Origin: a phage
Length of the DNA stretch: 64,000 nucleotides
Sequence record: NC_135728.1
Reading direction: 5' to 3' (one strand)
Below the pieces are notes generated by a model. That model worked only from the letters and a program-made list of their open reading frames with translations, was not told the DNA's origin and searched no databases. The number at the start of each line of letters is the position of its first letter. Positions within the stretch are counted from its first letter, which is position 1. Made by a program: the position numbers and the translations under genes. Below are positions 2,487 to 57,321 of this stretch, in pieces.

Positions 2487-2517
2487 TCCAAATAGAAAAT
2501 CCCCGCCGAAGCGGGGG
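2487..2517 (-). terminator. intrinsic terminator, CCCCCGC-UUCG-GCGGGG hairpin plus U-run
   Basis: Minus-sense stem-loop with UUCG tetraloop followed by AUUUUCUAUUU, directly after the stop of the 2530-2910 gene. Confidence 0.6.
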
Positions 2518-2529
2518 AGGTCTTAGAAA

Positions 2530-2910
2530 TTAATCGTAGTGTGCCAAAATCTCTCCATCGTTGCAAGTTCCCTCTACAAAGTTATGAAGATTCATGCACT
2601 CATCTTGATAGAAGAATTTACCGCTTTTCAGCCGTAAGCCAAACAACTCCGCATCTCCACGATGGCAAGCCTCTACAAGTTCATAGATTTCATACGGCAA
2701 CTCTCCGTCGTCATGGAAGAACCCAGCCTTATCGTTGACATAGATGAAGAAATAATCACTGCTGTCGCAAGCGTCCAATATTTTAAACCAGATTTCATCT
2801 ACATCTTTTTCTCGGATATCGATCACGCAAGTGGAGCTGCATTCGTACTCCTTCTCCGGCTCCTCGGTCAATACCACCAGGTAGTTTCCCCGCTTACCTA
2901 CTTTAGCCAT
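2530..2910 (-). CDS. hypothetical protein (126 aa, acidic)
   Basis: ORF in a tightly packed same-strand array. Confidence 0.5.
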   Translation of the reverse strand: MAKVGKRGNYLVVLTEEPEKEYECSSTCVIDIREKDVDEIWFKILDACDSSDYFFIYVNDKAGFFHDDGELPYEIYELVEACHRGDAELFGLRLKSGKFFYQDECMNLHNFVEGTCNDGEILAHYD

Positions 2911-2919
2911 ACAACCCCC

Positions 2920-4104
2920 TTAAGCTTTAGCCAAAATGGCGCTAAACTCTTCACCAAACTCTTTTACAATCTTCATCAGGTTTGGGTATGCTTTGATCAG
3001 CTGAGCAACAATCTTGTCACGCCCTTTGCCGATAAGCAAGGCATTTCCTAAGGCATTAGGTTTCATCATCGCCATAAAGACTGAGAATACAAAATCTCGG
3101 TTCTCGTCCTTGAAGTTTTCCCAAAGGAAATCGAGGAAGTTTGCCACGCAGCTGACAAGATCTTCGTCTGAGATACTTGCATTTTCCATCATATTACGAA
3201 TAGCGATACAACCTTCAGATCCAAGAATCCACAAAATGTCTGGCTGCTTAGGACCTACGTATTCTTTGCAACCACCTGCCATAATCCGACCGATTTCAGG
3301 TAAATTGCGTTTCTTGGTGTGGTATGTCCAGATCTCTACCGCTGCAGTGTGACCAATAGCACCTTGCAGAAGAACACGGGCCATAGCGTCAGAAATAATA
3401 CCGCTGTCAAAATCGTGCAAGATGTCAGATGCAGCAACCCAAGATCGTGGTGTGGCAAAAGATGGACAATTAATCTCAGCCATAGCCTCATAATTATCAA
3501 TAGCTGATGGAACTCTTTTCAGATACCCAATTACAGAGGAGTGAACCCCGTTGAGGAATGCGTAGTCCTCAATAAACACCTCTGCATTGCTTGTAACCTC
3601 TACAATGATAAAACGGTTAGCCAGAGGGGCTTCGAGCGCCGAAAGAACCGCACCATCTGTAGAACGGTTACCCGCAGCCACAAAAACAGAACCCTTAGGG
3701 AATGCATAGGTGCCGCACTTGTGGTCAAGCATAATTTGCATTGCAACCTTTTGCAGGTAGTTATCTGCATGAGTGAGCTCATCCAGAAAGATAATTCCGC
3801 TCCAGTCAGGATCCGCAGGCCAAAATTCTGGAATTGCAAACACTGTACGTGTAGTTCCATCCGCTTCTACAGGGATAGGTAGCCCAGATAAGTCGGCAGG
3901 ATCTTTATCTGACAGTCGCACGTCAACAAGGTTGTCATCTCGCTCACCGAACATATTATCAGCGATCTGCTTCATCACCTGGCTTTTACCCACACCCATT
4001 GGTCCCAAAATTAGGACAGATCGGCTATGACGTTGGGCAAACTGAATAATAGCTGGCAACTCACGGACAGTGATTTGACCACTTTCGAATACGTTTCTTG
4101 ACAT
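2920..4104 (-). CDS. AAA+ ATPase, MoxR-like (394 aa)
   Basis: Walker A GPMGVGKS and Walker B IIFLDEL; length and layout typical of MoxR/AAA_5 ATPases. Confidence 0.7.
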   Translation of the reverse strand: MSRNVFESGQITVRELPAIIQFAQRHSRSVLILGPMGVGKSQVMKQIADNMFGERDDNLVDVRLSDKDPADLSGLPIPVEADGTTRTVFAIPEFWPADPDWSGIIFLDELTHADNYLQKVAMQIMLDHKCGTYAFPKGSVFVAAGNRSTDGAVLSALEAPLANRFIIVEVTSNAEVFIEDYAFLNGVHSSVIGYLKRVPSAIDNYEAMAEINCPSFATPRSWVAASDILHDFDSGIISDAMARVLLQGAIGHTAAVEIWTYHTKKRNLPEIGRIMAGGCKEYVGPKQPDILWILGSEGCIAIRNMMENASISDEDLVSCVANFLDFLWENFKDENRDFVFSVFMAMMKPNALGNALLIGKGRDKIVAQLIKAYPNLMKIVKEFGEEFSAILAKA

Positions 4105-4373
4105 TAGTAAAAGTCCTCTACTTGTGTGTAAGTGTTTTCAAAGTTTTCCAAAACAGATATCACATCGAATCTGTCAATATCATACGTGACTCTCCAGTTG
4201 TACGCAACCCTTTCTGCTGTTGCCTCTTCTGGCGCTAGTCGTCTGCTGGCATAAAAGAGTGTTGGAGTACACTTTCTTGCTTGCCCTCTAACTTTCCCAT
4301 AATAATATCTGTGAATATCTTTGTCAAAATTTAACTCTTTTTCTGCACGAAGTTCATATTGCTGGTATAACAT
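4104..4373 (-). CDS. hypothetical protein (89 aa)
   Basis: ORF whose stop overlaps the start of the downstream gene. Confidence 0.45.
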   Translation of the reverse strand: MLYQQYELRAEKELNFDKDIHRYYYGKVRGQARKCTPTLFYASRRLAPEEATAERVAYNWRVTYDIDRFDVISVLENFENTYTQVEDFY

Positions 4374-4417
4374 CTCTACTACTCCTTAAGCGGCATCCTT
4401 GCCGCCATTCCTGCCCA

Positions 4418-4798
4418 CTAAAATGCAGTCCGAATCCAGACAAGGTTCTTATCTGCCCAATCATAGAGGCAAGTCATTGCACTATTGAATTGCTCACACG
4501 GAGGATAATCTTCTTCCATCTGGCGCATAGCAGAGCCTTGTGGGTAAAGCTCCCGTGCTGCAAACCACGCATCGTAGTCATCCACGGTATCGAAGTAGTA
4601 TACAACATCCTCCAACTCAGGATCGAACTTTGAACTATCAGGATCCAGTTGTTCAGGGAACTTGGAGCGTAACTTGCCAGCCACAATACTTGCCAACTCG
4701 CTAACATGCTTATTGTCCCACTCCACTAGCTTCCCGTCTTCAGTGATGCGTCCTAACCACTGATCATGAAGGTCAACTGTTGTCTTCCACTGAGCCAT
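4418..4798 (-). CDS. hypothetical protein (126 aa)
   Basis: ORF in same-strand array. Confidence 0.5.
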   Translation of the reverse strand: MAQWKTTVDLHDQWLGRITEDGKLVEWDNKHVSELASIVAGKLRSKFPEQLDPDSSKFDPELEDVVYYFDTVDDYDAWFAARELYPQGSAMRQMEEDYPPCEQFNSAMTCLYDWADKNLVWIRTAF

Positions 4799-4800
4799 TA

Positions 4801-5058
4801 TCAGTCCACCTCTTCTTCTCGTTGTAGTTCAAGATACCCGTAGGTCTGGACATCTTGAAGGGTGTGGAACTCCCCCTCTGCCGCTAAGGCACGAACAACT
4901 TGGCACAAAACCTTATGAGGAACTTCATCCAAACCTAGATTCAGTGCAGGAAACACCTTATCTAAGTCAACAAAATAAACGAACTGTAGCTCACCAGCTT
5001 CAAAAGGTGTATCTTCAATAAACATCTTCTCGGCATTAGTCAAGATCTGCACTTTCAT
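4801..5058 (-). CDS. hypothetical protein (85 aa)
   Basis: ORF in same-strand array. Confidence 0.45.
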   Translation of the reverse strand: MKVQILTNAEKMFIEDTPFEAGELQFVYFVDLDKVFPALNLGLDEVPHKVLCQVVRALAAEGEFHTLQDVQTYGYLELQREEEVD

Positions 5059-5414
5059 TATTCTACCTCCTCTTCTTTTTCTTCGGCATTAGTTTCATGG
5101 CTACTCCACTCGGGAGTTTCCACCTCGATAGTAAACTCACGCACTACACGGTAATTGCCCATGAAGCGCTCTACTTCGTCAAGGCTTATGGAGAGGCCAT
5201 TGGCAACCAGGTCTGCAGCACCCTCTTCTACCAGGTAGTCCAGATTGGCTTCCAGAGCCTCAGGTTCAAACCCTGTCAATGCAATCAGATAACCTTCCCC
5301 TTCATCAGGGAGGACAATACAGCCCAATTGATTTTCTTTAAAAAGGCAGTGACCATCATTATTGATTGGGTGTTCATTGCAGTACATAGCTGCACGATAA
5401 GTAACTTTAGACAT
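5058..5414 (-). CDS. hypothetical protein; start moved to the internal ATG (MSKVTYRA...)
   Basis: Track ORF begins at a TTG (5435); the ATG at 5414 is preceded by AAGGAGA at good spacing. The start lies inside the 29-bp inverted repeat. Confidence 0.5.
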   Translation of the reverse strand: MSKVTYRAAMYCNEHPINNDGHCLFKENQLGCIVLPDEGEGYLIALTGFEPEALEANLDYLVEEGAADLVANGLSISLDEVERFMGNYRVVREFTIEVETPEWSSHETNAEEKEEEVE

Positions 5415-5419
5415 CGGTA
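5391..5419 (-). repeat. 29-bp perfect inverted repeat, copy A (TACCGATGTCTAAAGTTACTTATCGTGCA in minus sense)
   Basis: Exact reverse-complement match to 7253-7281; spans the start codon and first 8 codons of the 5058-5414 gene. Confidence 0.85.
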
Positions 5420-5427
5420 AGGTCTCC

Positions 5428-5706
5428 TTAGGCAATTGTCATTTTACATTCTTGAAATTTTAACACAAGACGGTGATTGTGTCTAGTGTCTAAAAAGATT
5501 TTTTCAACCATCAGGCACACGGTATAACCGTCCATCTTGTTGACAACAAAATCTCCAGGATGAGGGAGGATGTCTCCCGGATTGGGGAAACATAGTCCAC
5601 TCAGAAAGGCATCGTCAGTGGTGGACTTAATAGATTTCCACACACTGTCTGCCTGAACATGTTCACCGACGTAATATACATTACCACACGCCTTCATCAT
5701 AGTCAA
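5428..5706 (-). CDS. hypothetical protein (92 aa)
   Basis: ORF with ATGA stop/start overlap to the upstream gene. Confidence 0.45.
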   Translation of the reverse strand: MTMMKACGNVYYVGEHVQADSVWKSIKSTTDDAFLSGLCFPNPGDILPHPGDFVVNKMDGYTVCLMVEKIFLDTRHNHRLVLKFQECKMTIA

Positions 5707-6602
5707 ACCCTCGCATAAATTAAACTTGTATCAGTATACTTCTTTAATGGGTAAATATCCTGTCCATAGATGCAATCATTAAACACCTCATCTACCCAAA
5801 GGCTACACTTATATCCCATCATTTCTAAAACACCCATCTCTTCTTCGGTAAACTTATCACCGCTCTTGCAAGATGTCAATACCTCATTCTGAACTCTTGC
5901 TACCTCGAAGCGGTTATTGGCAATATCGCTATTGGCGATCAAATACTCACCTAGAGGGTGTGCGGCATTAAAGATGCACAGTGGACGGCTGACGTAATAG
6001 TCTCCGGGTGTATAAAAATTGTTGAGGTCTTTCACTAGAACATTCTTATCAGTCACTTCATTTATAACATCATGCATATCGCACATCTTTATATGTTTGA
6101 GGATTCCATCCCCCATCACAAAATAAAAACTTGCTGAGACACTTTCGGCATAGATCTTACTAGATCCGTTGTAGTTGTATTTTACTCGGATGCTAACGGG
6201 GGTTTTTCCTGTCGCGTTAGCCATCATCCAAAGAAATGGCAGCTCATACTTCTCCTCTGAGGAAACAAAAGGTGAGGTAGCCAGAGATCGAAAACCTCCA
6301 GAGAAGTTGAAAGTTACAGAACCGCTCCGGCGGTATGATACCGCGTATTCTACTTTTATATCGACGTACCCATTGGAATAGGTGTGTCCTTCATTATCTA
6401 AATATGTCCACTTATCAGACCCAGATACCAATCTACGCTCAATAACCTTCATCACTACAGGAATTAGTGGGTTGGTACAAACCGCTTTTGAAGTAGCTTT
6501 ATCATCTAAAGCCTCGTAAATTGCAGAAAGGATGTCCCCAGCTGAAAGATTGGTTGTTATGTCCTGTTTCCACCGCGTACTAAAACTGTTAAGATTTGCC
6601 AT
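5703..6602 (-). CDS. hypothetical protein (299 aa)
   Basis: ORF with AGGAG RBS about 9 nt upstream of the ATG; first gene of the leftward early block. Confidence 0.55.
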   Translation of the reverse strand: MANLNSFSTRWKQDITTNLSAGDILSAIYEALDDKATSKAVCTNPLIPVVMKVIERRLVSGSDKWTYLDNEGHTYSNGYVDIKVEYAVSYRRSGSVTFNFSGGFRSLATSPFVSSEEKYELPFLWMMANATGKTPVSIRVKYNYNGSSKIYAESVSASFYFVMGDGILKHIKMCDMHDVINEVTDKNVLVKDLNNFYTPGDYYVSRPLCIFNAAHPLGEYLIANSDIANNRFEVARVQNEVLTSCKSGDKFTEEEMGVLEMMGYKCSLWVDEVFNDCIYGQDIYPLKKYTDTSLIYARV

Positions 6603-6642
6603 AAGTAAGTGCTCCTATGTTAGTTTTCTTTCGAATGGGTGC

Positions 6643-6671
6643 ACTATATTGTGGAGTTAGAGTAAAGTCAA
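6643..6671 (-). promoter_or_regulatory. sigma70-like promoter (TTGACT-17-TATAGT) for the leftward early block
   Basis: Minus-sense -35/-10 hexamers with 17-bp spacer in the divergent intergenic region. Confidence 0.45.
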
Positions 6672-6684
6672 CACGTTTTTGATG

Positions 6685-6713
6685 TTGACATCTGTTGAGA
6701 CAATTGATACGAT
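6685..6713 (+). promoter_or_regulatory. sigma70-like promoter (TTGACA-17-TACGAT) for the rightward block
   Basis: Plus-strand consensus -35 with 17-bp spacer and partial -10, back to back with the minus promoter. Confidence 0.4.
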
Positions 6714-6744
6714 TTCTTCACTTACAGAGCACGAGAGACGACTC

Positions 6745-7722
6745 ATGAATCTTGAAAAATATTATACACCAGAAGAGTTAGAGCGCTTGCTCAAAAAATA
6801 TAGACGCAAACAGAATAACGCACGGAAACGAGATATAGAGTTCGACCTGTCATGGGAAGAATACCTCCTATTTGGTAAAAAACTTTTAGGAGATGGAGTA
6901 TGCGACTATACCCTTATACCTTTTGACATGCACACAGATGAAAACGGGCTGGGAAATCCTTTCTACCCATCTCTGGAGCGGATAGATGATGAAGGTCCTT
7001 ATGCGGTTGATAACTGTTGTGTGGTGGGATTGAGATGCAACTCTCTAAAGGACTGTCTGGTAGATAAAAAGACTGCAGTCTTGATTAAAGACGAAACTGA
7101 TCGAAAAATTGTCCAGCAGATGATGCTCCACCTGAGCGAAGAGCGTATGGAGAAATTGAAAGGTGATTATACTTTTGAAGATTTCATCTTGCAATATGGA
7201 ACGGAAGAGGATAAACTAGCACTCTTTGACGAAGAAGAGGAGGAAGATATGCTACCGATGTCTAAAGTTACTTATCGTGCACCCAAGAAGCACATTTCCG
7301 ACATTGTAAACGAGCCTATCACAGAAGAGATTGAAGAAATGACGCAACAGGTGCATGAAGAGGAAAAAGAGACTCAGGAGGTCGAAGAGGAGCTTACAGA
7401 AGAGGTTCCTGCACTACCTGATGATGTTGAGATTGCCAAAGCTTACACTTTCTATTGTCAAACGTTCTACGATGTAGGTATGAAAGTTGATCTGTCGTTC
7501 AGCCAATTTAAGAGTTCGTATATTCGCAAATGCTGTGCTTTAACTGGTGAACGTCTTGGAGCTGGACTTAAACCTCTGTTGGTGACCGACTGGAATAAAG
7601 GTTTCACTAAAGGAAACTTTATGGTAGTATCTCCAATTATGGAGAAAGCTATGACAGATCTTATGAAGACCACCCGCATGACAATGACCGAGTTGGCAGG
7701 TATTTTCAAACACGTTAAATAA
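6745..7722 (+). CDS. hypothetical protein with HNH (His-Me finger)-like motifs
   Basis: Track ORF starts at TTG 6679, upstream of the predicted promoter; first ATG after it is 6745 (MNLEKYY). Motif SLERIDDEGPYAVDNCCVVGLRCNSLK plus an acidic linker; a second in-frame start (MSKVTYRA, 7258) sits in repeat copy B, so this may be two genes. Confidence 0.45.
   Translation: MNLEKYYTPEELERLLKKYRRKQNNARKRDIEFDLSWEEYLLFGKKLLGDGVCDYTLIPFDMHTDENGLGNPFYPSLERIDDEGPYAVDNCCVVGLRCNSLKDCLVDKKTAVLIKDETDRKIVQQMMLHLSEERMEKLKGDYTFEDFILQYGTEEDKLALFDEEEEEDMLPMSKVTYRAPKKHISDIVNEPITEEIEEMTQQVHEEEKETQEVEEELTEEVPALPDDVEIAKAYTFYCQTFYDVGMKVDLSFSQFKSSYIRKCCALTGERLGAGLKPLLVTDWNKGFTKGNFMVVSPIMEKAMTDLMKTTRMTMTELAGIFKHVK
7253..7281 (+). 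repeat. 29-bp perfect inverted repeat, copy B
   Basis: TACCGATGTCTAAAGTTACTTATCGTGCA on the plus strand; identical to the reverse complement of 5391-5419. Confidence 0.85.
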
Positions 7723-7734
7723 TAACAGGGGCCA

Positions 7735-9216
7735 ATGGCCCCTTCTGGAGTTTTAATGGATAGCAGAAGTTCAGAAATCATTGCCTCGCAGAAAGATGAT
7801 GCCCTGAGAATGTTGCAGGCTGCACGTATGTATCTCCTTGAAAAGCTGCCGTTCTATGGCACACTACTGTCAGGGTTGCAGTTCGTAGAAAACCACACAT
7901 GGTGCTCCACCATGGCAACCGACCATAAACGCATCTATTACAGTCCTGAGTTCATTATGGGATTGGCTGATGAACGCAAGGCTATTCTTAAGGCTTCTCT
8001 AACTGACGAGCAGTTTGAGATGGCTGAAGTTTTCTATTCCCCAAAATCTGTGAAAGAGGTGGCCTTCCTTCTGTCACATGAGGTGGGGCATATTATCTGT
8101 GATCACCTAGTCCGTGGTAAAAGCTTTGAGCCGGAACTGTTCAATATTGCTTGTGATCACGTTATCAACACAGGCCTTGTGGTTGACTTTAGCAAACCTC
8201 CTTGTGTTTTCTTCCCGAAGGGGAAAAGCACTACGTTCGTGAAAGGTAAGCCTTTTGGCTTCTTAGCCAGCTGCTACTGCGACATGAAGTTTCATGGATG
8301 GATTGCTGAGAACGTTTATGCAGTTCTTGATAAGCAAAGAGATCAGAATAACGGTAAAAGTAAGAACGGTAAAGGTGAGAACTCTCAAAGTGATAAGCGA
8401 CAAACCGATGATCACATGAGTGGGAACGGTGGCACCAGTGATAATCTTGGAAAGGCTATGGGGTATGATCAGCCACAACCTGTAATCAGCCAATCTGATA
8501 AAGATCAGGCCATGCAGGACTCTGGTGATATGCTGGAGGCAGCAATGCAAGCGTCCGGAGGCCGTTGCCCTGAGGCGGTGCGTGAGTTTGTCAAGAACAG
8601 AGGTAAACCTGTAATCAACTATATAGACATCATTAAGCAACGCATGTTGTCTAAAAGAAAGGCCGAACTGACCTACAGAAAACCTGGTCGCCGATCTGGG
8701 TCTTTGACCAGCACAATGCGAAAAGTTGGGGCTATAAACAAGAACCAGCACGTTATTGTTCCTGGTCGTAATCCGGAAAACACTATAGATATTGTGGTGG
8801 CTTTAGACGTTTCTGGCTCGATCTCTCAAAGAACTTTAAAGAAAATGTTCAATGAAATCACCGGATTGTGCAATCTGTATAAAGAGTTTAAGGTTACAAT
8901 GTTCTGTTGGTCAACTGAGGTTGGAGAGGTTAAAGTATACACTCGCGGCAACATAGACGAGATGATCAACTATGAGGTCCACTCAACATGGGGCACAACA
9001 GCTGCTTGCGTGTTCGAGTATCTGGATGCCAACATACCTAATGCAAAAGATGTCATCGTCCTGACCGACCTATACTTTGAGCATAACTTTGAACAAAAGG
9101 TTGTTGACAACAAGTGGAAAAAGTACGATACTCTATGGGTCCTCACTGAGGGGTATAATAAAAATTATATCCCGAGCTTTGGGAAAACTGTGGAATTAAT
9201 CGAGTACGCTAAGTAA
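7735..9216 (+). CDS. vWA-domain protein with N-terminal HExxH metallopeptidase-like motif (493 aa)
   Basis: HEVGHIICDH zinc-binding motif; C-terminal MIDAS-like VVALDVSGSIS; true start may be the ATG at 7756, since a hairpin overlaps 7726-7744. Confidence 0.65.
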   Translation: MAPSGVLMDSRSSEIIASQKDDALRMLQAARMYLLEKLPFYGTLLSGLQFVENHTWCSTMATDHKRIYYSPEFIMGLADERKAILKASLTDEQFEMAEVFYSPKSVKEVAFLLSHEVGHIICDHLVRGKSFEPELFNIACDHVINTGLVVDFSKPPCVFFPKGKSTTFVKGKPFGFLASCYCDMKFHGWIAENVYAVLDKQRDQNNGKSKNGKGENSQSDKRQTDDHMSGNGGTSDNLGKAMGYDQPQPVISQSDKDQAMQDSGDMLEAAMQASGGRCPEAVREFVKNRGKPVINYIDIIKQRMLSKRKAELTYRKPGRRSGSLTSTMRKVGAINKNQHVIVPGRNPENTIDIVVALDVSGSISQRTLKKMFNEITGLCNLYKEFKVTMFCWSTEVGEVKVYTRGNIDEMINYEVHSTWGTTAACVFEYLDANIPNAKDVIVLTDLYFEHNFEQKVVDNKWKKYDTLWVLTEGYNKNYIPSFGKTVELIEYAK

Positions 9217-9231
9217 GAGAGGAGGTTATTT

Positions 9232-9495
9232 ATGGCAACAGAGTTAAAATTTGCATCAAACCGTAAAACTAAGAAGTATCTGTCCTCAGTAGCTCCAGGC
9301 ACTGTGGTGATGTTTGTTGATGAACTTGGGGATGTGAATACAGCACTTGTTGTAAAATCACATCCTGCAAACATATATGTTGGGGTATTTGACCTGTTCA
9401 GAAAGGTGTTTGTAGAACTACCTCACAGTTTGGTTGTTACAGAAATGGATGCCTGCATAGAAATTCTTGGCGAAGTTATGGTGGAGGAACAATAA
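9232..9495 (+). CDS. small paralogous protein 1 of 4 (87 aa)
   Basis: Strong RBS GAGAGGAGG; shares G-T-V-V and V-x-E-x-D-x-x-I-x-I-L-G-E pattern with the next ORFs. Confidence 0.55.
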   Translation: MATELKFASNRKTKKYLSSVAPGTVVMFVDELGDVNTALVVKSHPANIYVGVFDLFRKVFVELPHSLVVTEMDACIEILGEVMVEEQ

Positions 9496-9758
9496 TGGCT
9501 ACCAGCATTGTATTCAATTCTAAGGTGAAGAACAAAAAGCGTGCAGACAGCTTTCCGTGTGGGACCGTGGTAAGTTGCGACGGAGACGGCATTCAAAACA
9601 TAGTTATGATTGTCAAAACAGGAGAACATTGTGTGTGGGGGTTCGATTTAGAAAATAATGAGTTGTACGATCTGCCACCAAACATGAAAGTTACAGAGCT
9701 TGACACCAAAATTACCATCCTTGGAGAGACAAGCTATTCAAAAGAAGGAGGAGAATAA
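9495..9758 (+). CDS. small paralogous protein 2 of 4 (87 aa)
   Basis: Same length and motif pattern as 9232-9495; ATGA-type coupling. Confidence 0.55.
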   Translation: MATSIVFNSKVKNKKRADSFPCGTVVSCDGDGIQNIVMIVKTGEHCVWGFDLENNELYDLPPNMKVTELDTKITILGETSYSKEGGE

Positions 9759-10021
9759 TGACCACAAAAATCACTATCGCAGAACCGAAAGCTAACACTC
9801 AACCTATCGAAAAGTTTAAGTGCGGTGAGGTGGTAACATTCACACCAGATAATGAAGATGCTAAGATTTTCGCAATGGTCACAGCTGAGTGGATGTGTGA
9901 CAACACCACACAGGTTCTGCGTTTTGACACCTATCTTACCGATGAAATCAGGAACGACAAGATTGTGACTGGTGTGGATACTGAGATTGTTTTCTACAAG
10001 AGCTTTTTAGAGGGTTTCTGA
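9758..10021 (+). CDS. small paralogous protein 3 of 4 (87 aa)
   Basis: Same length and related pattern (CGEVVTF...). Confidence 0.5.
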   Translation: MTTKITIAEPKANTQPIEKFKCGEVVTFTPDNEDAKIFAMVTAEWMCDNTTQVLRFDTYLTDEIRNDKIVTGVDTEIVFYKSFLEGF

Positions 10022-10022
10022 T

Positions 10023-10256
10023 ATGGCAAAAATTCGTAAATTATCTAGCAATCAGGTTGTGAAAGACTTTGAATCTGGAGAGATTCTTTATGTTCGTGAT
10101 GCAGATGACGAAGGTGAAGATCTCGTTATGTTGGTGGGGCACGCTGAGGACGGATGCATCCAAGCTGTTTTTCTTGAAACAGCTATGGTGCACTGGATAG
10201 AGCTGGACCTGAAAGCACGAAAACCTAAAGCAGAAATCCTGATTTACGAAGATTAA
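10023..10256 (+). CDS. small paralogous protein 4 of 4 (77 aa, more diverged)
   Basis: Related pattern (GEILYV ... LVMLVG). Confidence 0.45.
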   Translation: MAKIRKLSSNQVVKDFESGEILYVRDADDEGEDLVMLVGHAEDGCIQAVFLETAMVHWIELDLKARKPKAEILIYED

Positions 10257-10271
10257 TAAAAGGAGAGAGCC

Positions 10272-10721
10272 GTGTTGAGCAAACGTGAATGCGACAGCAT
10301 TAGCCTGAATTCTTATAAGAAACAATGGTTTGGGGTGGAAGTTTGCCGACTGCGGCTAGGCTCCTACCTGAACTTCGTTTATTATGAGAGCGATAGTCGT
10401 ATCGTTTCTTATGAAGTGTTCTACACTAAGAACACCTTCGAACTGCGCCGTAAAGTGGAGGGTGGGAGAACTACCCCCCAGAATAATTGGGAAACTATCC
10501 TACCTACAGATGTTATAGGAAGTCCTCTGAATGTATCTGAAGATGAAAATCTTATGGTTCATGCTATGATGGGGCTTGACAGCTTAGAGCTGGCGATCTA
10601 TGATATGTCCATCGAAGCAGTTAAGCTGGACTACATCGAAAACACTTTAGAGGAAGGTATCAAGAAGTTTCTCAGTGAGAAATTAAAAGACCACTTTCAT
10701 AAGGAGCTATATCTGTTATGA
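10272..10721 (+). CDS. hypothetical protein (149 aa)
   Basis: GTG start preceded by AGGAGAGAG. Confidence 0.5.
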   Translation: MLSKRECDSISLNSYKKQWFGVEVCRLRLGSYLNFVYYESDSRIVSYEVFYTKNTFELRRKVEGGRTTPQNNWETILPTDVIGSPLNVSEDENLMVHAMMGLDSLELAIYDMSIEAVKLDYIENTLEEGIKKFLSEKLKDHFHKELYLL

Positions 10722-13739: not shown

Positions 13740-16700
13740 CTAACGAGAAAAGGTTGCGTAGGCTTCTAGACGATACTGCTGGTCACCAGGGAACATAACA
13801 CCTATAGAGGCTGTCCCTAGAATCCTGCCTTCCTTTCCAGACTCCATTCTGAACCCTACCCATCCTGAACTTCTTGCAGCATCGATGTTGTCGCTATACC
13901 CGAAAGTGGCAAGATCGTCAACACCAGCCCCAAACAGCAACTGAAGCTGACTTCTCGGAAGCCCTATAATTTCAGGAATATACGCACCAAAGTACACCAT
14001 CTGTCCTACCTTAGGACCGCTGCCGTACTCCATCGGTTTGCTTGTAGAGAAAGTCTTCATACCAGAAGTACCTGCCGGATTAGGGTATGCCCCGTTTGTT
14101 GCTGTACCTATCCACATTCTCCACTGTGGTGCCATCTGTCTGACAGTAAACGATGTTGAAGACGTTTTGCGGCCTGCATCATCTGTAACTACAAACTTTA
14201 TGGTGACATTCCCAGTAGCTTTAAATGTTACCAGCCCTGTGGTGGCATCCACTGTCGCAATGTTGGTATTACTACTTTCCCAAGTCTTTCTAATCCCGGA
14301 TACGTTGGAAGGGGTAATAGAAGGTTCCTGCATCTGCAACTTACCACCCACAATCCCTATGCCGTTACCTGGATTATACAACACACCAACCTCGTCTATA
14401 ATGTTTCCTGCTTTGAGACTATACTTCCTTGAGAAGTTGTAAGTTCCGTTATAAGTGTGTGTCCCTGAGAAGGTGACATCTGCTTTTCCGTAAGAGATGC
14501 AAACCAAAGCATACTTCCTGTCAGGCAACGTTGCTCCCGTCTCTGGGTGGGTTTTACCAACCTGGAACACGCTGGGGTCAGTAGAATCGTGGCTATCGCT
14601 GACAGAGCTTGGACCACCCATCAACTGAGGTAAGCAATTCCTTACCCACGTCCAGTTATTATCGCTAGAAAAGTCAACAGCCAGATCAAATACAACCCAC
14701 TCATTTGGCTTCCATACTGGTGTTGCAATAGATTTACCTACGCCACCTCCTTGGAGTGTTGCCGACTGTTCAGTGATCAGGGCCGCATAGGCTAGAGTTC
14801 CTAAACTCAGAGTCTGGCTTGCTGTCCTCACTACCTTAGAATCAGCATCTGTGAAGTTGTTGATGATCTGGAATGTGCCATAAGTGTTTTTACAGGTAAT
14901 TCTGGCGTTCAGCGTGTCAATCTTCCTCACATCTGCCATAGCAGTGTTAGACACAGAGAAGTCAGAAGCTTTAGCTGAGTTTGCCGCAACAGCAGGATCA
15001 ACGTTAAGAGTTGCGTTGAACTGGCAGGCAGGGGTAACCAGCAGCTTGTTATCACCTATTTGCTTCCATGAAACACTTTGAACAGGGAGATTCCATTTAA
15101 TACCTGAGAAAACCTTAGCAACCCTTGGCCCCAAAGCTCCAGTCCTGTTGTCTTTACAGCACATAGACATGGTGATCGTTGACGGAGTGGCCTGACCAAA
15201 TAATTGCTGTGCTTTTGCAGAGGACATAGTGTAGAAATTGTCCTTAACAAACTCATCAGCAGCTAAAGACCCATCAGCTCTCCACCACTGAACCTGATAC
15301 CCTGTTTTGTCCCAACCACCGACCTGCTTCAAGTCCTCCCAGGAGATTTCCAGATCCCCAGTGGTAGGGTTGATTGCAGCAGTTCCCGGTGTTCCAGAGG
15401 ACCATAATGGGATATCGAACCACGCTGGTTTAACAGATTGTACTGCGTTCGGCCCTATTGCAGCAGCAAGTTGCTGACCCATCAACACACGAGCATCTTT
15501 TACCAAGCCCCATTCAATCATGGACCCGGAGTAGCCTTCTTTCTTATAGGCCGAAGATCCGTTCAAATGGATAAGCCTGCTGCAGTCGAAACCATACGCC
15601 CCGCCACCGTTAGGATCTGCAAAGTTAGTTATGATTCTATCCCTTATATTTTTCCATGCCCTGCCTCCAATCTCATAGTCATGGTCATAACATCTCTGCA
15701 GCGTTGTCCAGCAAATGATTGCCATTCTTCTGCCACCAGTAAACCCGAAAGCGCCGTCATTCAACTCTTTCCACAGATAGCAGTTAGTTGCCCACATAGC
15801 TCTGTGGATATTGAACCAGTTTATAGACTTAGCAGAATTGTCCCACTGAGTTCCCGGTAATTCAGGCCACACCGCATTCACCAGCATATCCTCTGTGCCA
15901 GCATCGACCAAGAAGCCTCTTACCTTCCTACCCATCCCTTCTCTGTCTTTAGCAATCCAATTGCCAAACAGCCTCAGTTTTGGACCATAAACAACATCTT
16001 CAGGGTGCTCAAAAGAGACATACTTCAAGTATACCGTAGGATCACCGTAGGTGCCATCACAAACACTTTTATGCATGTTCTCACCCAGGTCTAGACGAAG
16101 TCCTGTCACCACTTTAGATGTGTCGGTGAATTTGTCTGTTAAATCAAATTCATACCACCACCATTCGCCACCAAGCATAAATTTCTTGCACCGCGCAGTG
16201 TCTGTATCTGATATTCTCTTATCTCCTGCAAAAGGTGAATCAGCAAACTGATAGTGCAGAGCAGTCTCAAATAGATGTGTTGAGGTTCCGTTTTCTGCAA
16301 GAACTTGCTTACCTATTAAGTCACACTTAATGATCATCACAACACGCTTGTAGCCGTTTGTTATCGGAACCTGCATAGATATGGATGTTCCGTCCATGTT
16401 CGATCTTAGTGCGGTCATGATGATGTAAGGATCAACAGCATTACCCAAAGTTTCAGGTCCTGGAATTATCTTGTATTTCTTGACCTGGCCCATAAATCTG
16501 TCACTGGCGTAAGTTGCAGCCTCAAAACAAGAGCCACCACCAGGTAATTCTCCAGGTCCCCAGAAAAATGCCCCATAGCAGTTATAGAACCACTTATTAG
16601 GGTCGTATTTGTTCTTGAAGGTCTGGACCTCGTTGGCCTGTTTTGTCAAGAAAACCTGCGTGTCTGTGAAGATTGCAGGGTTTACTCTCGCCTGTCTTGG

Positions 16701-19376
16701 AGGGTAACCTGTAGTTTGGTTAAACCACAAATTACAAGAGTAATCCCTCATATAGTCATAATCAGAGTATTTGTTTACATCTTCGTTCCAACACATGTTT
16801 AGGTTGGTACCGCCCATGCATACAATATATTCTGCGACATACTTATCACTTCTGGTAGGAATACCTATGAACCATCTGTTAACAGGCTCATCCCAAGCTG
16901 TGCGCTCATCTTTAACGCAGATAGCAATCCAGTCATGTGTTCCTGTTTTCTTGCACACATCTCGCTTCATACCATAGTAGAACTCTTTAGTATTCGGCTC
17001 AGGTGCATTTATCAGGTAACTCCATGCCTGATTTGCATAAGTTCCATTGGTGCGTGGATCATGATCAAAGGCATACATGATGATCCTTTCCCCACCAAGA
17101 TGTTCGCCAAGAGTAACTTTGACATTCACATCGCCGTAACCATTGCGAACAACATCCATATTATCAATAGAGATACCTCTGGGCGTGTAGGCAATTTTCA
17201 GCGAGTTATCTTCACTAGTGCCGCCAAGTGTAATCCCTATGTTGTTTGTTGTCCCGTCGACATATCTTACTGTAGCTTCCCAGCGTATTCCGAAATACCC
17301 TGCATCATGGCTGACAATTTTCAGTGTACGAGCTCCTGGGTGAGGTTTTCCAGGATCAGGCCAAGGGTCTGGGTGTTCGTGAACAGTCAACGACGTTCCG
17401 TTCTGCTCATTAACCTGCAACATTTTACCACCCTTGCCATTAGGATTGAACTCCCACAAGGCTTGTGTTTTCACAATATTGTCATACGTGGCGCGTCTTT
17501 GATCGTAGATCTCTTGGGTCACATCATAAGTGACTGATCCAGCATCCATTCTGTGGAGTCTGACCATATACGATGTATCCCCTTCTACTGCAGGCTGGGT
17601 CCCATTCAGCCCAAAGTATACAGTATCATTAACATGGAACTGTTTGTTTCTACCGACAGTATGCCATTTACCATCAGACGGGTACGCAGGAACTATGGTG
17701 TTCCAGTTCAAAGTCCTTGTCGTATGGGTTCTGCCTGTGCCATGCTTGTCATGATAGGTTATTTTTACAGAGTACAGGCCACGTCTGTTAACATTTCTGT
17801 TATACTGGGTAACAACAACTTCGTTGGCCCCGCCGTGGTTCCAGTTGGTGGAGAATTGGTAATTTGCATCTGTAACAACCGTACCTGCAGCATTCACCAG
17901 TTCAATCTTGTCAATGATGAACGTAGCTCCCTCTGGCTGAGGCTTCAATTTCATCTTGACCGTGTCACCAATGTAGATATTGCTAACACTGCTAACACCA
18001 TTAACGTCGAAAATATCATCAACGCCCCAACTGTCTACTGGGACATTTTTATACCAATTCTCAGGAACCTCTGTGAACCCCTGACTATTAAGTCTGCCGC
18101 CAAACAGGTTATTAGAGCCTGTAAAACTTCCCCTCGGGATACCTGACCACCAAAGTTTACCATTAACAACAGTAAAGGTCCCTAAGAAACCTTCTCTGTG
18201 GATGCCTTGGAAATAAACACTCTCTGTCCAGCTGACTGGCAGGCGTTGCTCAACATATTTAGCTGTAGCAAGAGCTTGATAGTGGATAAAATCGGCCCTA
18301 GGACTATTGTTTGCAGATTGTGCACCAATATCATTACATAAGTTGCGAGAGAACCCACGATACTGCTTAGTGCCATTATTGAAGAAAATGCCACTTGTGC
18401 CGTACCCACGAGCCATCATTACCTCATGGGTGTAGGTGATATTCAGTTCCCGCCATGTATCATCTCCCCAAATGTTTTGACCATAAAATACGTTAACAAG
18501 CTGCTGGTCATCGGGTCTATGCATCCTCTGTGTAGCAATTACTGCCCCGTTAGGACCACACATAAACCCTTTCCACTCCTCATCTGCAGGAATGCCCCTC
18601 AAATCGTTACGAGTAATCTGCACAGGAGGCCAAACAAGGTCGTTTCTACTGTTATTTCTCAGAAAGTCGTAACCTGCAATCCAGAATCCGTTAGGACCAC
18701 CAAAAATAACCGAGTTGTCATGAACTTCACAATTAATTCTTGGATTTTTCCAAGGACCTGTCTCTGGACTTTCAGATGTTTCACCGATCTTAACTGGAGT
18801 AGCGTGTTGACTTTTGTCAACATGAAGAGAGCCGTAAGTATTATTGCCAGAGCCGTACAGGTGAAGCATACCATCAGCCTCTGGTGCAGCAATTACCCAC
18901 ACGGTATTGTTTACGCCACCCATCACTTCAACAAGTCTCTCAGGATGGGTGTCCAAATGCAACCCTGTTACGATCTGTTCCGGCAAAGGTGTCCACTCTC
19001 TGACACAAACATCGTTTCCACCTGCTGCCTCCGATCCGATAAGACCAGCTGTGCAACCAATATAGAAAAATTTATTATCGAATGTGCGGATTACAAATGC
19101 ACGGTCAGCTCTCCAAACATGGTCTACGTTCCAAGCTGCCTCATTAGGATAGTTTATTGTATCAAGATCTCCAGTCCGACACTCTCCGAACCTATTATAG
19201 CCAGTAATATTAAGCTGACCATCATCAAAAAGTATAGCTAAGCTATTTACATAGGATACTGTGTTGCTTGTACCATCACTGTTGTCTATTGGGTATGACA
19301 GAACAGCAAGTTCCTTAATTCCACCCCTCTTATCGAGGAAATGACGACCAAGTTTTAGCAAAGGGATTGGAAGCAT
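13740..19376 (-). CDS. giant virion-associated protein (1878 aa) with C-terminal Big_2-like Ig domain
   Basis: Uninterrupted ORF; C-terminal segment TGLVTFKATGNVTIKFVVTDDAGRKTSS resembles bacterial Ig-like group 2 domains; last gene of the structural block. Confidence 0.6.
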   Translation of the reverse strand: MLPIPLLKLGRHFLDKRGGIKELAVLSYPIDNSDGTSNTVSYVNSLAILFDDGQLNITGYNRFGECRTGDLDTINYPNEAAWNVDHVWRADRAFVIRTFDNKFFYIGCTAGLIGSEAAGGNDVCVREWTPLPEQIVTGLHLDTHPERLVEVMGGVNNTVWVIAAPEADGMLHLYGSGNNTYGSLHVDKSQHATPVKIGETSESPETGPWKNPRINCEVHDNSVIFGGPNGFWIAGYDFLRNNSRNDLVWPPVQITRNDLRGIPADEEWKGFMCGPNGAVIATQRMHRPDDQQLVNVFYGQNIWGDDTWRELNITYTHEVMMARGYGTSGIFFNNGTKQYRGFSRNLCNDIGAQSANNSPRADFIHYQALATAKYVEQRLPVSWTESVYFQGIHREGFLGTFTVVNGKLWWSGIPRGSFTGSNNLFGGRLNSQGFTEVPENWYKNVPVDSWGVDDIFDVNGVSSVSNIYIGDTVKMKLKPQPEGATFIIDKIELVNAAGTVVTDANYQFSTNWNHGGANEVVVTQYNRNVNRRGLYSVKITYHDKHGTGRTHTTRTLNWNTIVPAYPSDGKWHTVGRNKQFHVNDTVYFGLNGTQPAVEGDTSYMVRLHRMDAGSVTYDVTQEIYDQRRATYDNIVKTQALWEFNPNGKGGKMLQVNEQNGTSLTVHEHPDPWPDPGKPHPGARTLKIVSHDAGYFGIRWEATVRYVDGTTNNIGITLGGTSEDNSLKIAYTPRGISIDNMDVVRNGYGDVNVKVTLGEHLGGERIIMYAFDHDPRTNGTYANQAWSYLINAPEPNTKEFYYGMKRDVCKKTGTHDWIAICVKDERTAWDEPVNRWFIGIPTRSDKYVAEYIVCMGGTNLNMCWNEDVNKYSDYDYMRDYSCNLWFNQTTGYPPRQARVNPAIFTDTQVFLTKQANEVQTFKNKYDPNKWFYNCYGAFFWGPGELPGGGSCFEAATYASDRFMGQVKKYKIIPGPETLGNAVDPYIIMTALRSNMDGTSISMQVPITNGYKRVVMIIKCDLIGKQVLAENGTSTHLFETALHYQFADSPFAGDKRISDTDTARCKKFMLGGEWWWYEFDLTDKFTDTSKVVTGLRLDLGENMHKSVCDGTYGDPTVYLKYVSFEHPEDVVYGPKLRLFGNWIAKDREGMGRKVRGFLVDAGTEDMLVNAVWPELPGTQWDNSAKSINWFNIHRAMWATNCYLWKELNDGAFGFTGGRRMAIICWTTLQRCYDHDYEIGGRAWKNIRDRIITNFADPNGGGAYGFDCSRLIHLNGSSAYKKEGYSGSMIEWGLVKDARVLMGQQLAAAIGPNAVQSVKPAWFDIPLWSSGTPGTAAINPTTGDLEISWEDLKQVGGWDKTGYQVQWWRADGSLAADEFVKDNFYTMSSAKAQQLFGQATPSTITMSMCCKDNRTGALGPRVAKVFSGIKWNLPVQSVSWKQIGDNKLLVTPACQFNATLNVDPAVAANSAKASDFSVSNTAMADVRKIDTLNARITCKNTYGTFQIINNFTDADSKVVRTASQTLSLGTLAYAALITEQSATLQGGGVGKSIATPVWKPNEWVVFDLAVDFSSDNNWTWVRNCLPQLMGGPSSVSDSHDSTDPSVFQVGKTHPETGATLPDRKYALVCISYGKADVTFSGTHTYNGTYNFSRKYSLKAGNIIDEVGVLYNPGNGIGIVGGKLQMQEPSITPSNVSGIRKTWESSNTNIATVDATTGLVTFKATGNVTIKFVVTDDAGRKTSSTSFTVRQMAPQWRMWIGTATNGAYPNPAGTSGMKTFSTSKPMEYGSGPKVGQMVYFGAYIPEIIGLPRSQLQLLFGAGVDDLATFGYSDNIDAARSSGWVGFRMESGKEGRILGTASIGVMFPGDQQYRLEAYATFSR

Positions 19377-55857: not shown

Positions 55858-56835
55858 TTATTTGGCAGATTCTGCACGTGCACGAGCAAGTGCTTTTGCA
55901 ACGTTTTCAGCAAGAATTTCTTCTGCGGATTTTGCAATATCATCCACAACAGGTTCGCCATCATTACCATGTTCAGTGGTGGCAAACTCTTCTTTGGTTT
56001 TATGCACCTCTGCTTCCAGCTCTTTAATTTTGGCTTGAGCTTTCTCCAGCATAGCTACGATAGGTTCGTTAGCTTTTTCCAGCATGAAGTCAACCAGGGT
56101 TGCATGATCTTCTTCACCAACAAAGCTTAAAGCTTGAGCCTTGGTCAGCATTTTAGCTTTTTCAACTTCAACCTGGGCCTTAATAATTTCTTCAGCTTTA
56201 CTCTGGGTCGCTTTCAGCTCTTCTACTTGCTTCAGCAGGTCCAGGTACTCTTTGGTTTTGGTTACGTCCACCGGATTCTCCTCGGTATTTGCGGATTTTT
56301 CAATATCATCCACCTTGGTAGTTTTATCCACCTCAGCAGGTTCCTGTACCGCCTTAATCAGGTTCCCTTCTTTATCGAAGAGATCAGCGGTTACTTGTTC
56401 AAAAATCTGTTGTGTTTTTAACAGACTGTATTGATCTACCACACTAAGCTGCTTGCCTTCTTTTGCAGCTTTATGAATGGTCACGTTATCACAACGCTCT
56501 TCCAGCCATGCAATACAAGACTCTGCGTCAGCTTGCGCCCATTCCCAATCAGGATGCTCTTTAGCCCAAGCCTCTTCTTCAATCTCAAAGCCAAGCATGT
56601 GTGCAAGTGCTTTAGCATCATCATACCACATATCGAAGAAACGACGCAGGTATTCTTCAAAACTAAGCTCCACAGTAACTTGACGAAGTGCCTTAACAAT
56701 ATCGTCTGTTAACTGCTCAGGCTTAAGATCACTCTTCATCAAAAGAGATACAGGTCTGTTGTTAGCGCTATAGCCTTGCGCCTTGTGGCACAGGGCAATC
56801 CCCTTCTCTTTAATAGTAATCGTTTTTTCAGACAT
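55858..56835 (-). CDS. capsid scaffolding protein (325 aa)
   Basis: Highly charged, Ala/Glu/Lys-rich helical C-terminal half; position between protease-like and capsid genes. Confidence 0.55.
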   Translation of the reverse strand: MSEKTITIKEKGIALCHKAQGYSANNRPVSLLMKSDLKPEQLTDDIVKALRQVTVELSFEEYLRRFFDMWYDDAKALAHMLGFEIEEEAWAKEHPDWEWAQADAESCIAWLEERCDNVTIHKAAKEGKQLSVVDQYSLLKTQQIFEQVTADLFDKEGNLIKAVQEPAEVDKTTKVDDIEKSANTEENPVDVTKTKEYLDLLKQVEELKATQSKAEEIIKAQVEVEKAKMLTKAQALSFVGEEDHATLVDFMLEKANEPIVAMLEKAQAKIKELEAEVHKTKEEFATTEHGNDGEPVVDDIAKSAEEILAENVAKALARARAESAK

Positions 56836-57254
56836 TATTCATTGCCCTCTTCTACAACACTGATCCCGAAGTTTACGTTGGTAATTTCACCAGTTTCTTC
56901 ATCAACATTACCTGTTGCCTGAATGCTTAGGCCACCAACAATGCCAGCCTTCTTAGCTTCCCATAATTCAGGATTATTGTATTTAACTTTAGCAACCCAA
57001 GAGCCAGCCTTGATGACCTGCTCAGTGCCAATCACTACAACATCAAACTCTTCTTGAATCCACGTCTTTTCAATGGTGAAAGCATCTGTAGAGGTCAAGT
57101 GAAAAAGGTTTTCAGAAACTAGTCCTGCGGCGTATGCTGCGTCCCAGTTATCTTTAGCCTTTTTGATGGTGTCTTTACTCATCCACTCACCGTGAGCATC
57201 TTTAGTGTCAGGCTCGTAGATGATTTCGTAGGAAATCATTTCTTCCTGTGGCAT
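56835..57254 (-). CDS. prohead protease-like protein; start ambiguous
   Basis: The track ORF (start 57410) overlaps the portal 3' end by 89 nt; internal ATGs at 57266, 57254 and 57239 are more plausible, the last with an AGGAAG RBS. Confidence 0.4.
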   Translation of the reverse strand: MPQEEMISYEIIYEPDTKDAHGEWMSKDTIKKAKDNWDAAYAAGLVSENLFHLTSTDAFTIEKTWIQEEFDVVVIGTEQVIKAGSWVAKVKYNNPELWEAKKAGIVGGLSIQATGNVDEETGEITNVNFGISVVEEGNE

Positions 57255-57321
57255 CTTATTCCCCATGTGGATTATTTTATCACGCCAAAGGAGGTTTTGC
57301 AACCCCCTGTGTTGATAATTT

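Follow-up and report, generated by a model that had tools for sequence, protein, structure and literature searches.

Genes for MoxR-class AAA+ ATPases and for their VWA-domain partners normally adjoin in one operon, which raises the question of what such a pair does in a phage that encodes its two members apart. We addressed this question in a 64,000-nucleotide stretch of phage DNA (sequence record NC_135728.1; hereafter the window), in which the open reading frame (ORF) of the ATPase (2920–4104, minus strand) and that of a putative metallopeptidase-VWA protein (7735/7756–9216, plus strand) lie on opposite strands with 3.6 kb between them. A 140-nt intergenic region with back-to-back sigma70-like promoters sits between the arms of the two genes. 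The initial annotation, which had placed the pair about 3.6 kb apart on opposite strands and flanking divergent promoters, described this layout correctly. GenBank already labels the genes as MoxR ATPase and metallopeptidase/VWA, and the module they form is itself known. The new point is the link between an ATPase reported to act against the defense system DS-28 and its unlinked, co-depleted peptidase-VWA partner. We propose, with a probability of roughly 0.6, that the two proteins are a split but still cooperating counter-defense remodeler or protease.

Over positions 2500 to 9500, the window shares 99.7% identity with Escherichia phages Gotham, JLBYU08, and Murica (Vequintavirus, rV5-like), and at least 80% of this region is covered in 114 phage records. 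The coordinate frame of the window is that of rV5 and Murica, with rIIA as the start.

The MoxR-class ATPase

The ATPase had been predicted to be MoxR-like from a Walker A motif, GPMGVGKS, and a Walker B motif, IIFLDEL. Both motifs and the ORF itself were confirmed, and the class is supported by homologues, a sequence profile, and an AlphaFold2 (AF2) model. Searches of Pfam, NCBIfam, PADLOC, and PDB sequences with the ATPase gave P-loop-level matches only, below threshold. The protein itself does not reach the gathering score of Pfam AAA_3/AAA_5, and its PHROGs label is phrog_1297 ‘ATPase’. Its homologues in a large protein collection form a graded series, in which ~360-aa relatives at E ~1e-44 bear PF07726 (AAA_3), PF07728 (AAA_5), and sometimes PF20030 (bpMoxR). 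Because direct family matches are sub-threshold, the MoxR assignment rests on transitive homology. An alignment of 32 ATPase sequences includes 12 with an AAA_5/AAA_3 match and five with a bpMoxR match, and the profile built from it has midasin as its top PDB match (1.5e-9).

The AF2 model (predicted local distance difference test score, pLDDT, 81.7) contains a β-hairpin after strand 2, which is the helix-2 insert (model residues 75–88), and a short hairpin before sensor 1 (128–133). The alignment and the model start after the first codon, and their numbering equals the true residue number minus one. A Foldseek search with the model returned NorQ chains (9qh*) as 11 of the 12 best matches, the remaining one being CbbQ2 (6l1q); NorQ and CbbQ2 are solved MoxR ATPases. 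The Walker A and B motifs, sensor 1 (N146), the Arg finger (R164), and sensor 2 (R220) show no variation in 32 homologues with identity down to 30% and are therefore not chance matches. In the same alignment, the helix-2-insert region is unusually dense in invariant residues. Sequence and model together indicate that the ATPase is a divergent yet genuine MoxR-class AAA+ protein, most likely catalytically competent, whose helix-2 insert is, by analogy with NorQ, a putative docking site for the VWA partner.

The metallopeptidase-VWA partner

The initial annotation had combined an HExxH motif (HEVGHIICDH) and a vWA/MIDAS domain (VVALDVSGSIS) in one protein. This architecture is supported by a match to PF13203, a full MIDAS, and a set of invariant residues. 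The ORF given as 7735–9216 exists, with a start that is probably ATG 7756 and not ATG 7735. The motif GGAG at 7747 precedes ATG 7756, the resulting 486-aa form is the one annotated in Murica, Gotham, and the BASEL phages, and the alternative ATG 7735 falls within a GC-rich hairpin. Residue numbers used here nevertheless count from ATG 7735 (493-aa form).

The N-terminal domain matches PF13203 (DUF2201_N) with an E-value of 4.6e-28 and 99 bits, versus a cut-off of 23.2. Domain searches thus support both assignments, directly through Pfam for the partner and only through homologues, profile, and structure model for the ATPase. Residues H115, E116, H119, H124, and D141 and the MIDAS set (D358, S360, G361, S362, T421, and D445) are invariant in 31–34 homologues with identity down to ~20%; the segment VVALDVSGSIS corresponds to residues 353–363. 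The VWA domain, which dominates the matches in structure searches with this protein, is supported as an α/β fold, with the NorD VWA domain among the structure matches. A PDB sequence search with the full-length protein gave no match. A profile of the N-terminal domain aligned weakly with selecase MJ1213 (E = 0.0018) and with the M48 peptidases HtpX and BepA (E = 0.05–0.3), spanning the edge strand and HExxH helix only. Judged from its sequence, the N-terminal domain is a zincin-like metallopeptidase and a putative protease; almost no literature was found on DUF2201, PF13203, or PF09967. Directly before the VWA domain lie two near-invariant arginines, R319/R320 (TYxRPxRR), which we speculate could contact the ATPase pore or its acidic insert.

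A single split of an ancestral operon

Gene order was scanned by a hidden Markov model search of 80 IMG/VR loci, of which 60 were informative because 1,300 nt or more of sequence followed the ATPase. The partner was found in every informative locus (60/60), in 58 of them directly downstream on the same strand after a median gap of 114 nt (range 57–537), and the two remaining loci are Vequintavirus-like with split genes. The pair also adjoins in nine of ten metagenome-assembled genome (MAG) contigs, the tenth being too short, in metagenomic large-phage contigs, in phAPEC6, and in the bacterium Sulfurivermis fontis. Within the Vequintavirinae, it adjoins in Certrevirus CR8, Acinetobacter phage ABPH49, and contig L008, and four small ORFs separate ATPase and partner in contig L007. 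The VWA-partner association of the MoxR class, seen as adjoining genes in 58/60 viral loci and one bacterium, is present in the window in unlinked form. These data confirm the earlier expectation that such pairs normally adjoin in one operon. One further viral locus, L047 (IMG/VR 3300043446_001178, 2935–4004), is the sole one with ~1,070 nt downstream of the ATPase and no detectable partner, which may reflect insertion or loss.

The ancestral state is a two-gene operon with the ATPase first. The divergent promoter separates the two genes in Vequintavirus, Avunavirus Av-05, Henunavirus pEp_SNUABM_01, and the loci L009 and L012. In neighbor-joining trees of both proteins, these five split lineages group together as a single clade, whose sister group and outgroups are lineages with adjoining genes; therefore, the split arose once and is derived. 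In ABPH49, the gene for an Srd-like anti-sigma protein lies on the arm opposite the intact pair, and in the split genomes the partner lies downstream of that gene. It follows that the split arose by movement of the partner gene and not by inversion of a block.

The split by itself is an ordinary rearrangement. Homologues across Vequintavirinae loci were detectable for just six of the 25 early genes of the window: rIIA, the cell-wall hydrolase, the ATPase, gp6, the Srd-like gene, and the partner. ATPase and partner are thus strongly co-retained despite loss of linkage, while their neighbors turned over. No conserved third gene was found beside either of them: gp3, gp5, and gp7–gp10 are not kept across Vequintavirinae loci, and gp6 (4418–4798) is kept in part.

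Phenotype of the Bas54 counterparts

Functional data on this pair come from a preprint describing HIDEN-SEQ, in which saturated transposon libraries of Bas54 were generated (bioRxiv 10.1101/2025.11.20.689424). Bas54 is phage MaxBurger (MZ501093.1). The window ATPase shares 100% amino acid identity with Bas54_0063 (‘MoxR ATPase’) and is the same protein, and the window partner shares 98% with Bas54_0055 (‘putative metallopeptidase’). On E. coli K-12, 60 of 64 TA sites in 0063 and 81 of 86 in 0055 are disrupted, and both genes are classed as non-essential (bioRxiv 10.1101/2025.11.20.689424). Phages that lack 0063, or an unrelated gene of 99 aa (0140), are reported to show specific sensitivity to DS-28, which is a defense system of uropathogenic E. 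coli CFE311 (bioRxiv 10.1101/2025.11.20.689424). DS-28 stems from the DefensePredictor study and is a two-gene unit of a hypothetical protein and a HEPN-family nuclease (PMC13092281). Bas54_0140 is neither the partner gene nor a gene of the window.

In the K-12 versus CFE311 resampling table of the preprint, 0063 has a log2 fold change (log2FC) of −7.23 (adjusted p 0), and 0055 has a log2FC of −2.20 (p 0.0009, adjusted p 0.00896). The seven genes between the pair (0056–0062) and 0064 are non-significant, with log2FC values of −0.08 to +0.79, and within the block 0042–0067 only 0063 and 0055 become important on CFE311. The preprint treats 0063 as a lone ATPase plus the unrelated 0140; its text makes no mention of 0055, and its strain list contains no 0055 knockout. 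It leaves 0063 unconnected to 0055, which lies eight genes away, is the ancestral operon partner, and is co-depleted in the preprint’s own data. This comparison shows that 0055 was overlooked in the Bas54 screen because it no longer lies beside the ATPase gene. Anti-defense, which the initial annotation had offered as speculation, is backed for the ATPase by the preprint’s experiment with the identical protein against DS-28 and more weakly for the partner, by depletion in transposon sequencing (Tn-seq).

The same CFE311 comparison lists a PIF1-like DNA helicase by rIIB (bas54_0068) at log2FC −6.32 and an intimin-domain lateral tail fiber (bas54_0041) at log2FC −2.23. By product name and the Murica annotation, bas54_0041 appears to be the 1,878-aa ORF at 13740–19376 (minus strand), and the orthologue of 0068 lies just past the window start. 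The supplementary sheet ‘resampling_K-12_vs_CFE303’ (Data S6) carries the command line and numbers of the CFE311 run, is identical to Data S7, and therefore lacks the CFE303 results.

Relation to known modules

By sequence homology of both proteins, the window pair is the Vequintavirus version of the N4 gp24/gp25 two-gene module. By tblastn, 663 phage records contain the partner and 820 contain the ATPase, and the hosts of the two sets are distributed in parallel. The matches include features annotated ‘N4 gp25-like’, ‘gp25’, ‘gp24’, and ‘gp24-like’, and in phAPEC6 a ‘MoxR ATPase’ stands beside an ‘N4 gp25-like protein’. Genes 24 and 25 of N4, which belong to the middle class, account for two of the 14 genes that make up the core of N4-like phages (PMC4193335, PMC2784036). 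The Schitoviridae proteins gp24 (AAA ATPase) and gp25 (vWFA) resemble the window pair in homology and domain content, and their expression in N4 precedes that of the late genes. The N4-like pair is adjoining and co-oriented (in vB_Eco_Jura, 55888–56889 and 57126–58085) with the ATPase upstream, whereas the window pair is split, a trait derived from the single-origin rearrangement. Both proteins are longer in Vequintavirinae than in N4-like phages: the ATPase has a C-terminal helical extension, and the partner has an insertion located between the NPEF strand and the VWA domain.

A pair of identical architecture, in which MoxR accompanies a vWA protein whose N-terminal part is a metallopeptidase, occurs in group 2.2 jumbo phages, where Iyer et al. 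(2021) proposed a role in virion assembly (PMC7824862). The copy in phAPEC6 (Asteriusvirus) is a detectable homologue of the window pair, with adjoining genes. The jumbo-phage pair differs in the assembly or processing role proposed for it, whereas in Vequintavirus both genes are dispensable for plaques on K-12 and the ATPase is needed against a defense system. Outside phages, NorQ and CbbQ2 provide the best structure matches to the ATPase, and the partners of NorQ/NorD and CbbQ/CbbO share the layout of N-terminal domain, linker, and VWA. Identity to these systems is only ~15–20%, their N-terminal domain binds the target whereas that of the phage partner is zincin-like, and the phage context is viral. 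The FtsH-type AAA+ zinc metalloproteases have an AAA+ ring and an HExxH peptidase in common with the window pair, a functional analogy that implies no membership. In contrast to FtsH, the window pair belongs to another AAA+ clade, carries the peptidase on a separate VWA-tethered polypeptide, and has neither a membrane anchor nor a sign of substrate threading.

The partner family is large, comprising 32,969 clusters at 50% identity with E ≤ 1e-3 and 14,074 at 1e-30. A scan of 185,579 species genomes with the phage-type ATPase found 10 close relatives, each on a MAG contig in a phage-like setting, and the ATPase subfamily is therefore essentially viral. A thymidylate synthase gene lies 1.1–1.6 kb downstream of the adjoining pair in unrelated phage groups (L003–L006, ~9570–10460; L095, 23015–23944), and N4-like phages encode thymidylate synthase (N4 gp30) a few genes past gp24/gp25. 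The metagenomic contigs L003–L006 have a 5′–3′ exonuclease upstream of the pair. The module tends to travel with nucleotide-metabolism genes, not with structural genes.

Proposed mechanism and alternative explanations

In the structural model of NorQD, the H2 insert of NorQ holds a finger of NorD in the pore, and hydrolysis of ATP turns the VWA domain against the N-terminal domain, which stretches the linker; its authors expect the same mode for AAA+/VWA pairs generally (PMC13036017). We propose a NorQD-like mechanism for the phage pair because its partner has the same layout and the helix-2 insert of its ATPase is highly conserved. The partner gene moved once to the other arm of the bidirectional early promoter, beside the Srd-like anti-sigma gene, and host RNA polymerase would still switch on both genes together early in infection. 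The ATPase would form a hexamer whose helix-2 inserts grip a finger or loop of the partner’s VWA domain, by analogy with NorQ/NorD, while the MIDAS site would bind an acidic residue on a target protein. ATP-driven rotation and stretching of the linker may then remodel the target and either present it to the HExxH peptidase domain or activate that domain. The target could be a component of DS-28 or a phage or host product that triggers it. Such a counter-defense role is shown in part: the pair is dispensable on the defense-poor K-12 and needed on CFE311, with the ATPase needed specifically against DS-28. On a wider reading that we hold only tentatively, N4 gp24/gp25-type modules would be general ATP-powered counter-defense machines, in which the MIDAS captures immune proteins, for example DS-28 components, which are then disarmed or cleaved; the subunits would act in trans, so that their genes could be unlinked with no functional loss.

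Several considerations weigh against a cooperating counter-defense pair. The functional data come from a single preprint, and its CFE303-labeled sheet is mislabeled, so that host specificity relative to CFE303 cannot be checked. Partner mutants are depleted ~5-fold on CFE311 versus a complete loss of ATPase mutants. Sensitivity to DS-28 is known for the ATPase knockout and the evidence for the partner is Tn-seq depletion on CFE311, so separate action of the two is conceivable. Resistance to DS-28 also requires an unrelated second small gene, bas54_0140, which lies outside the window. The N-terminal domain resembles solved zincins weakly (best E = 0.0018, for selecase), and the literature searched contains no demonstration of protease activity or of ATPase–partner contact for any family member. 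Finally, a module conserved in tens of thousands of phage lineages, and belonging to the core of N4-like phages that infect marine hosts, is unlikely to serve against one E. coli system alone, and the sensitivity to DS-28 may be an indirect effect of a broader function.

The unequal CFE311 phenotypes (log2FC −7.23 versus −2.20) would fit proteins that became independent once their genes had separated, with the ATPase, alone or with Bas54_0140, neutralizing DS-28 and the peptidase-VWA protein taking another role early in infection. The loss of co-transcription also suits functional independence, yet both genes are kept in every Vequintavirinae lineage examined while nearly all neighbors turned over, and the trees of ATPase and partner are congruent at clade level. 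The helix-2 insert, which binds the partner in NorQ, is still rich in invariant residues, and the MIDAS of the partner is intact. The preprint authors named 0063 and 0140, and not 0055, as anti-DS-28 genes, but their strain list holds no 0055 knockout, and 0055 is the only other significantly depleted gene in the block 0042–0067 on the same host. We regard independence of the two proteins as unlikely. Far less probable still is a chaperone or processing protease for virion assembly, as proposed by Iyer et al. (2021) for jumbo phages in analogy with the MoxR-vWA pair of Acidianus two-tailed virus (PMC7824862). The phAPEC6 MoxR ATPase, gp265c, does appear in a virion mass-spectrometry list, but that list also holds thymidylate synthase, and a topoisomerase subunit and SSB are reported in the particle too, so non-structural proteins are included (PMC7247149). 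In rV5, neither protein is named among the virion proteins in the text of the rV5 paper, and a look-up of its mass-spectrometry table by selected terms gave no match. Both Vequintavirus genes stand behind early sigma70-type promoters among host-takeover and nucleotide-metabolism genes, and their N4 counterparts are middle genes, which fits virion maturation poorly. On K-12, Bas54 can do without either gene (~94% of their TA sites are disrupted), whereas structural genes in the same table tolerate no insertions; this dispensability largely refutes an essential role in virion maturation in Vequintavirus.

Every characterized MoxR-VWA pair is a maturation or remodeling factor, and the phage pair might likewise be a NorQD/CbbQO-like maturation factor or a general host-takeover remodeler of a phage or host (metallo)protein. 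Its HExxH motif would then perhaps bind metal and not be proteolytic, and DS-28 sensitivity would be indirect, for example through an unprocessed intermediate or altered physiology that triggers the HEPN nuclease. The breadth of the module (32,969 clusters), which argues against specificity for one E. coli system, and its frequent position beside thymidylate synthase and other nucleotide-metabolism genes suit such a role. Nonetheless, the catalytic Glu of HExxH is invariant, needless for metal storage alone; no metalloenzyme partner is conserved beside the pair across lineages; and mutants of ATPase or partner have no detectable fitness cost on K-12, unexpected if they matured an important enzyme. 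On balance, such a role seems quite improbable to us.

The window joins three lines of evidence: the comparative-genomic module of N4-like and jumbo phages, the NorQD structural model of a MoxR ring gripping a VWA domain, and the phenotype of the Bas54 MoxR ATPase against DS-28, which is the first for any phage member of the module. From the first comparisons of N4-like phages onward, N4 gp24/gp25 and their many homologues have stood without an assigned role, and the link to Bas54 makes their function directly testable in a tractable coliphage. If the pair is indeed an ATP-driven anti-immune protease, it would represent a new class of phage counter-defense.

Promoters, hairpins, and neighboring genes

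The coordinates of the two genes, their motifs, and the regulatory elements are collected in Table 1.

Table 1 Features of the split ATPase/metallopeptidase-VWA locus (window coordinates).
Feature	Coordinates	Strand	Remarks
MoxR-class AAA+ ATPase, 394 aa	2920–4104	−	rV5 gp4 (rV5 Table S3); N4 gp24 homologue
Walker A, residues 34–41	3982–4005	−	G37, G39, K40, S41 invariant
Walker B, residues 104–110	3775–3795	−	D108, E109 invariant
Helix-2 insert region, ~residues 61–99	3808–3924	−	β-hairpin in model; invariant D71, G74, A90, P92, P96, P99
Metallopeptidase-VWA protein, 486 aa from 7756 (493 aa from 7735)	7756–9216	+	rV5 gp12; N4 gp25 homologue
Putative zinc-binding/catalytic motif HEVGHIICDH, residues 115–124	8077–8106	+	invariant H115, E116, H119, H124; D141 downstream
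VWA domain, ~residues 350–493	8782–9213	+	full MIDAS: D358-x-S360-G-S362 (nt 8806–8820), T421, D445
Sigma70-like promoter TTGACT-17-TATAGT, for the ATPase arm	6643–6671	−	sequence; PhagePromoter feature in Gotham; rV5 paper
Sigma70-like promoter with extended −10, TTGACA-17-TG-TACGAT, for the Srd-like and peptidase-VWA arm	6685–6713	+	sequence; Gotham
Intrinsic-terminator-like hairpin after gp3, closes ATPase unit	2501–2516	−	sequence; annotated in Murica and Gotham
Perfect GC-rich palindromic hairpin AGGGGCCAATGGCCCCT, between Srd-like stop and peptidase-VWA start	7727–7743		sequence; annotated as terminator in Murica

Back-to-back early promoters are also predicted for rV5 (PMC3606486). Promoters of similar form, with TTGACA plus TG, are present in Av-05 and pEp_SNUABM_01. 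An inverted repeat, GTCAACACGTTTTTGATGTTGAC, at 6667–6689 coincides largely with the −35 boxes of both divergent promoters, taking in the greater part of each hexamer, and might act as a shared operator or bidirectional element. The Srd-like gene starts at ATG 6745, and the upstream TTG 6679 falls in the promoter. The hairpin at 7727–7743 could attenuate expression of the partner or stabilize the upstream mRNA.

On the opposite arm, the stop codon of gp5 (4104–4373, minus strand; 89 aa) overlaps the ATPase start codon in the sequence TAATG, which suggests translational coupling. A near-consensus sigma70 promoter, TTGACA-17-TATTAT (11/12), lies inside gp5 at 4299–4327 (minus strand), upstream of the ATPase. 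Several GenBank records and phrog_13164 label gp5 ‘ATPase’, despite the lack of any family match and of homologues outside Vequintavirus. Just downstream of the ATPase, gp3 (2530–2910, minus strand; 126 aa) has protein T5.083 of phage T5 as its homologue in the rV5 gene table (6e-22); it is not kept beside the ATPase in other Vequintavirinae.

The plus-strand arm also carries a questionable label. Both phrog_3118 (the Srd-like anti-sigma protein, 6745–7722) and phrog_1314 (the peptidase-VWA protein) are labeled ‘HNH endonuclease’, a label propagated into RefSeq for Av-05, KpS8, pEp_SNUABM_01, and Murica NC_041871 and clearly wrong for phrog_1314. The peptidase-VWA gene is followed immediately by four small ORFs in a row (87, 87, 87, and 77 aa; 9232–10256, plus strand), which are weak paralogues in a tandem array. 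The first two share 38% identity, and a G23 and I76 motif is common to the array.

Among database entries matching this locus, 16 unannotated ‘Campylobacter phage’ records (MG0656xx, host Campylobacter jejuni) are ~97–99.6% identical to the coliphage region 2500–9500, and they probably represent mis-assigned hosts or contaminating coliphages.

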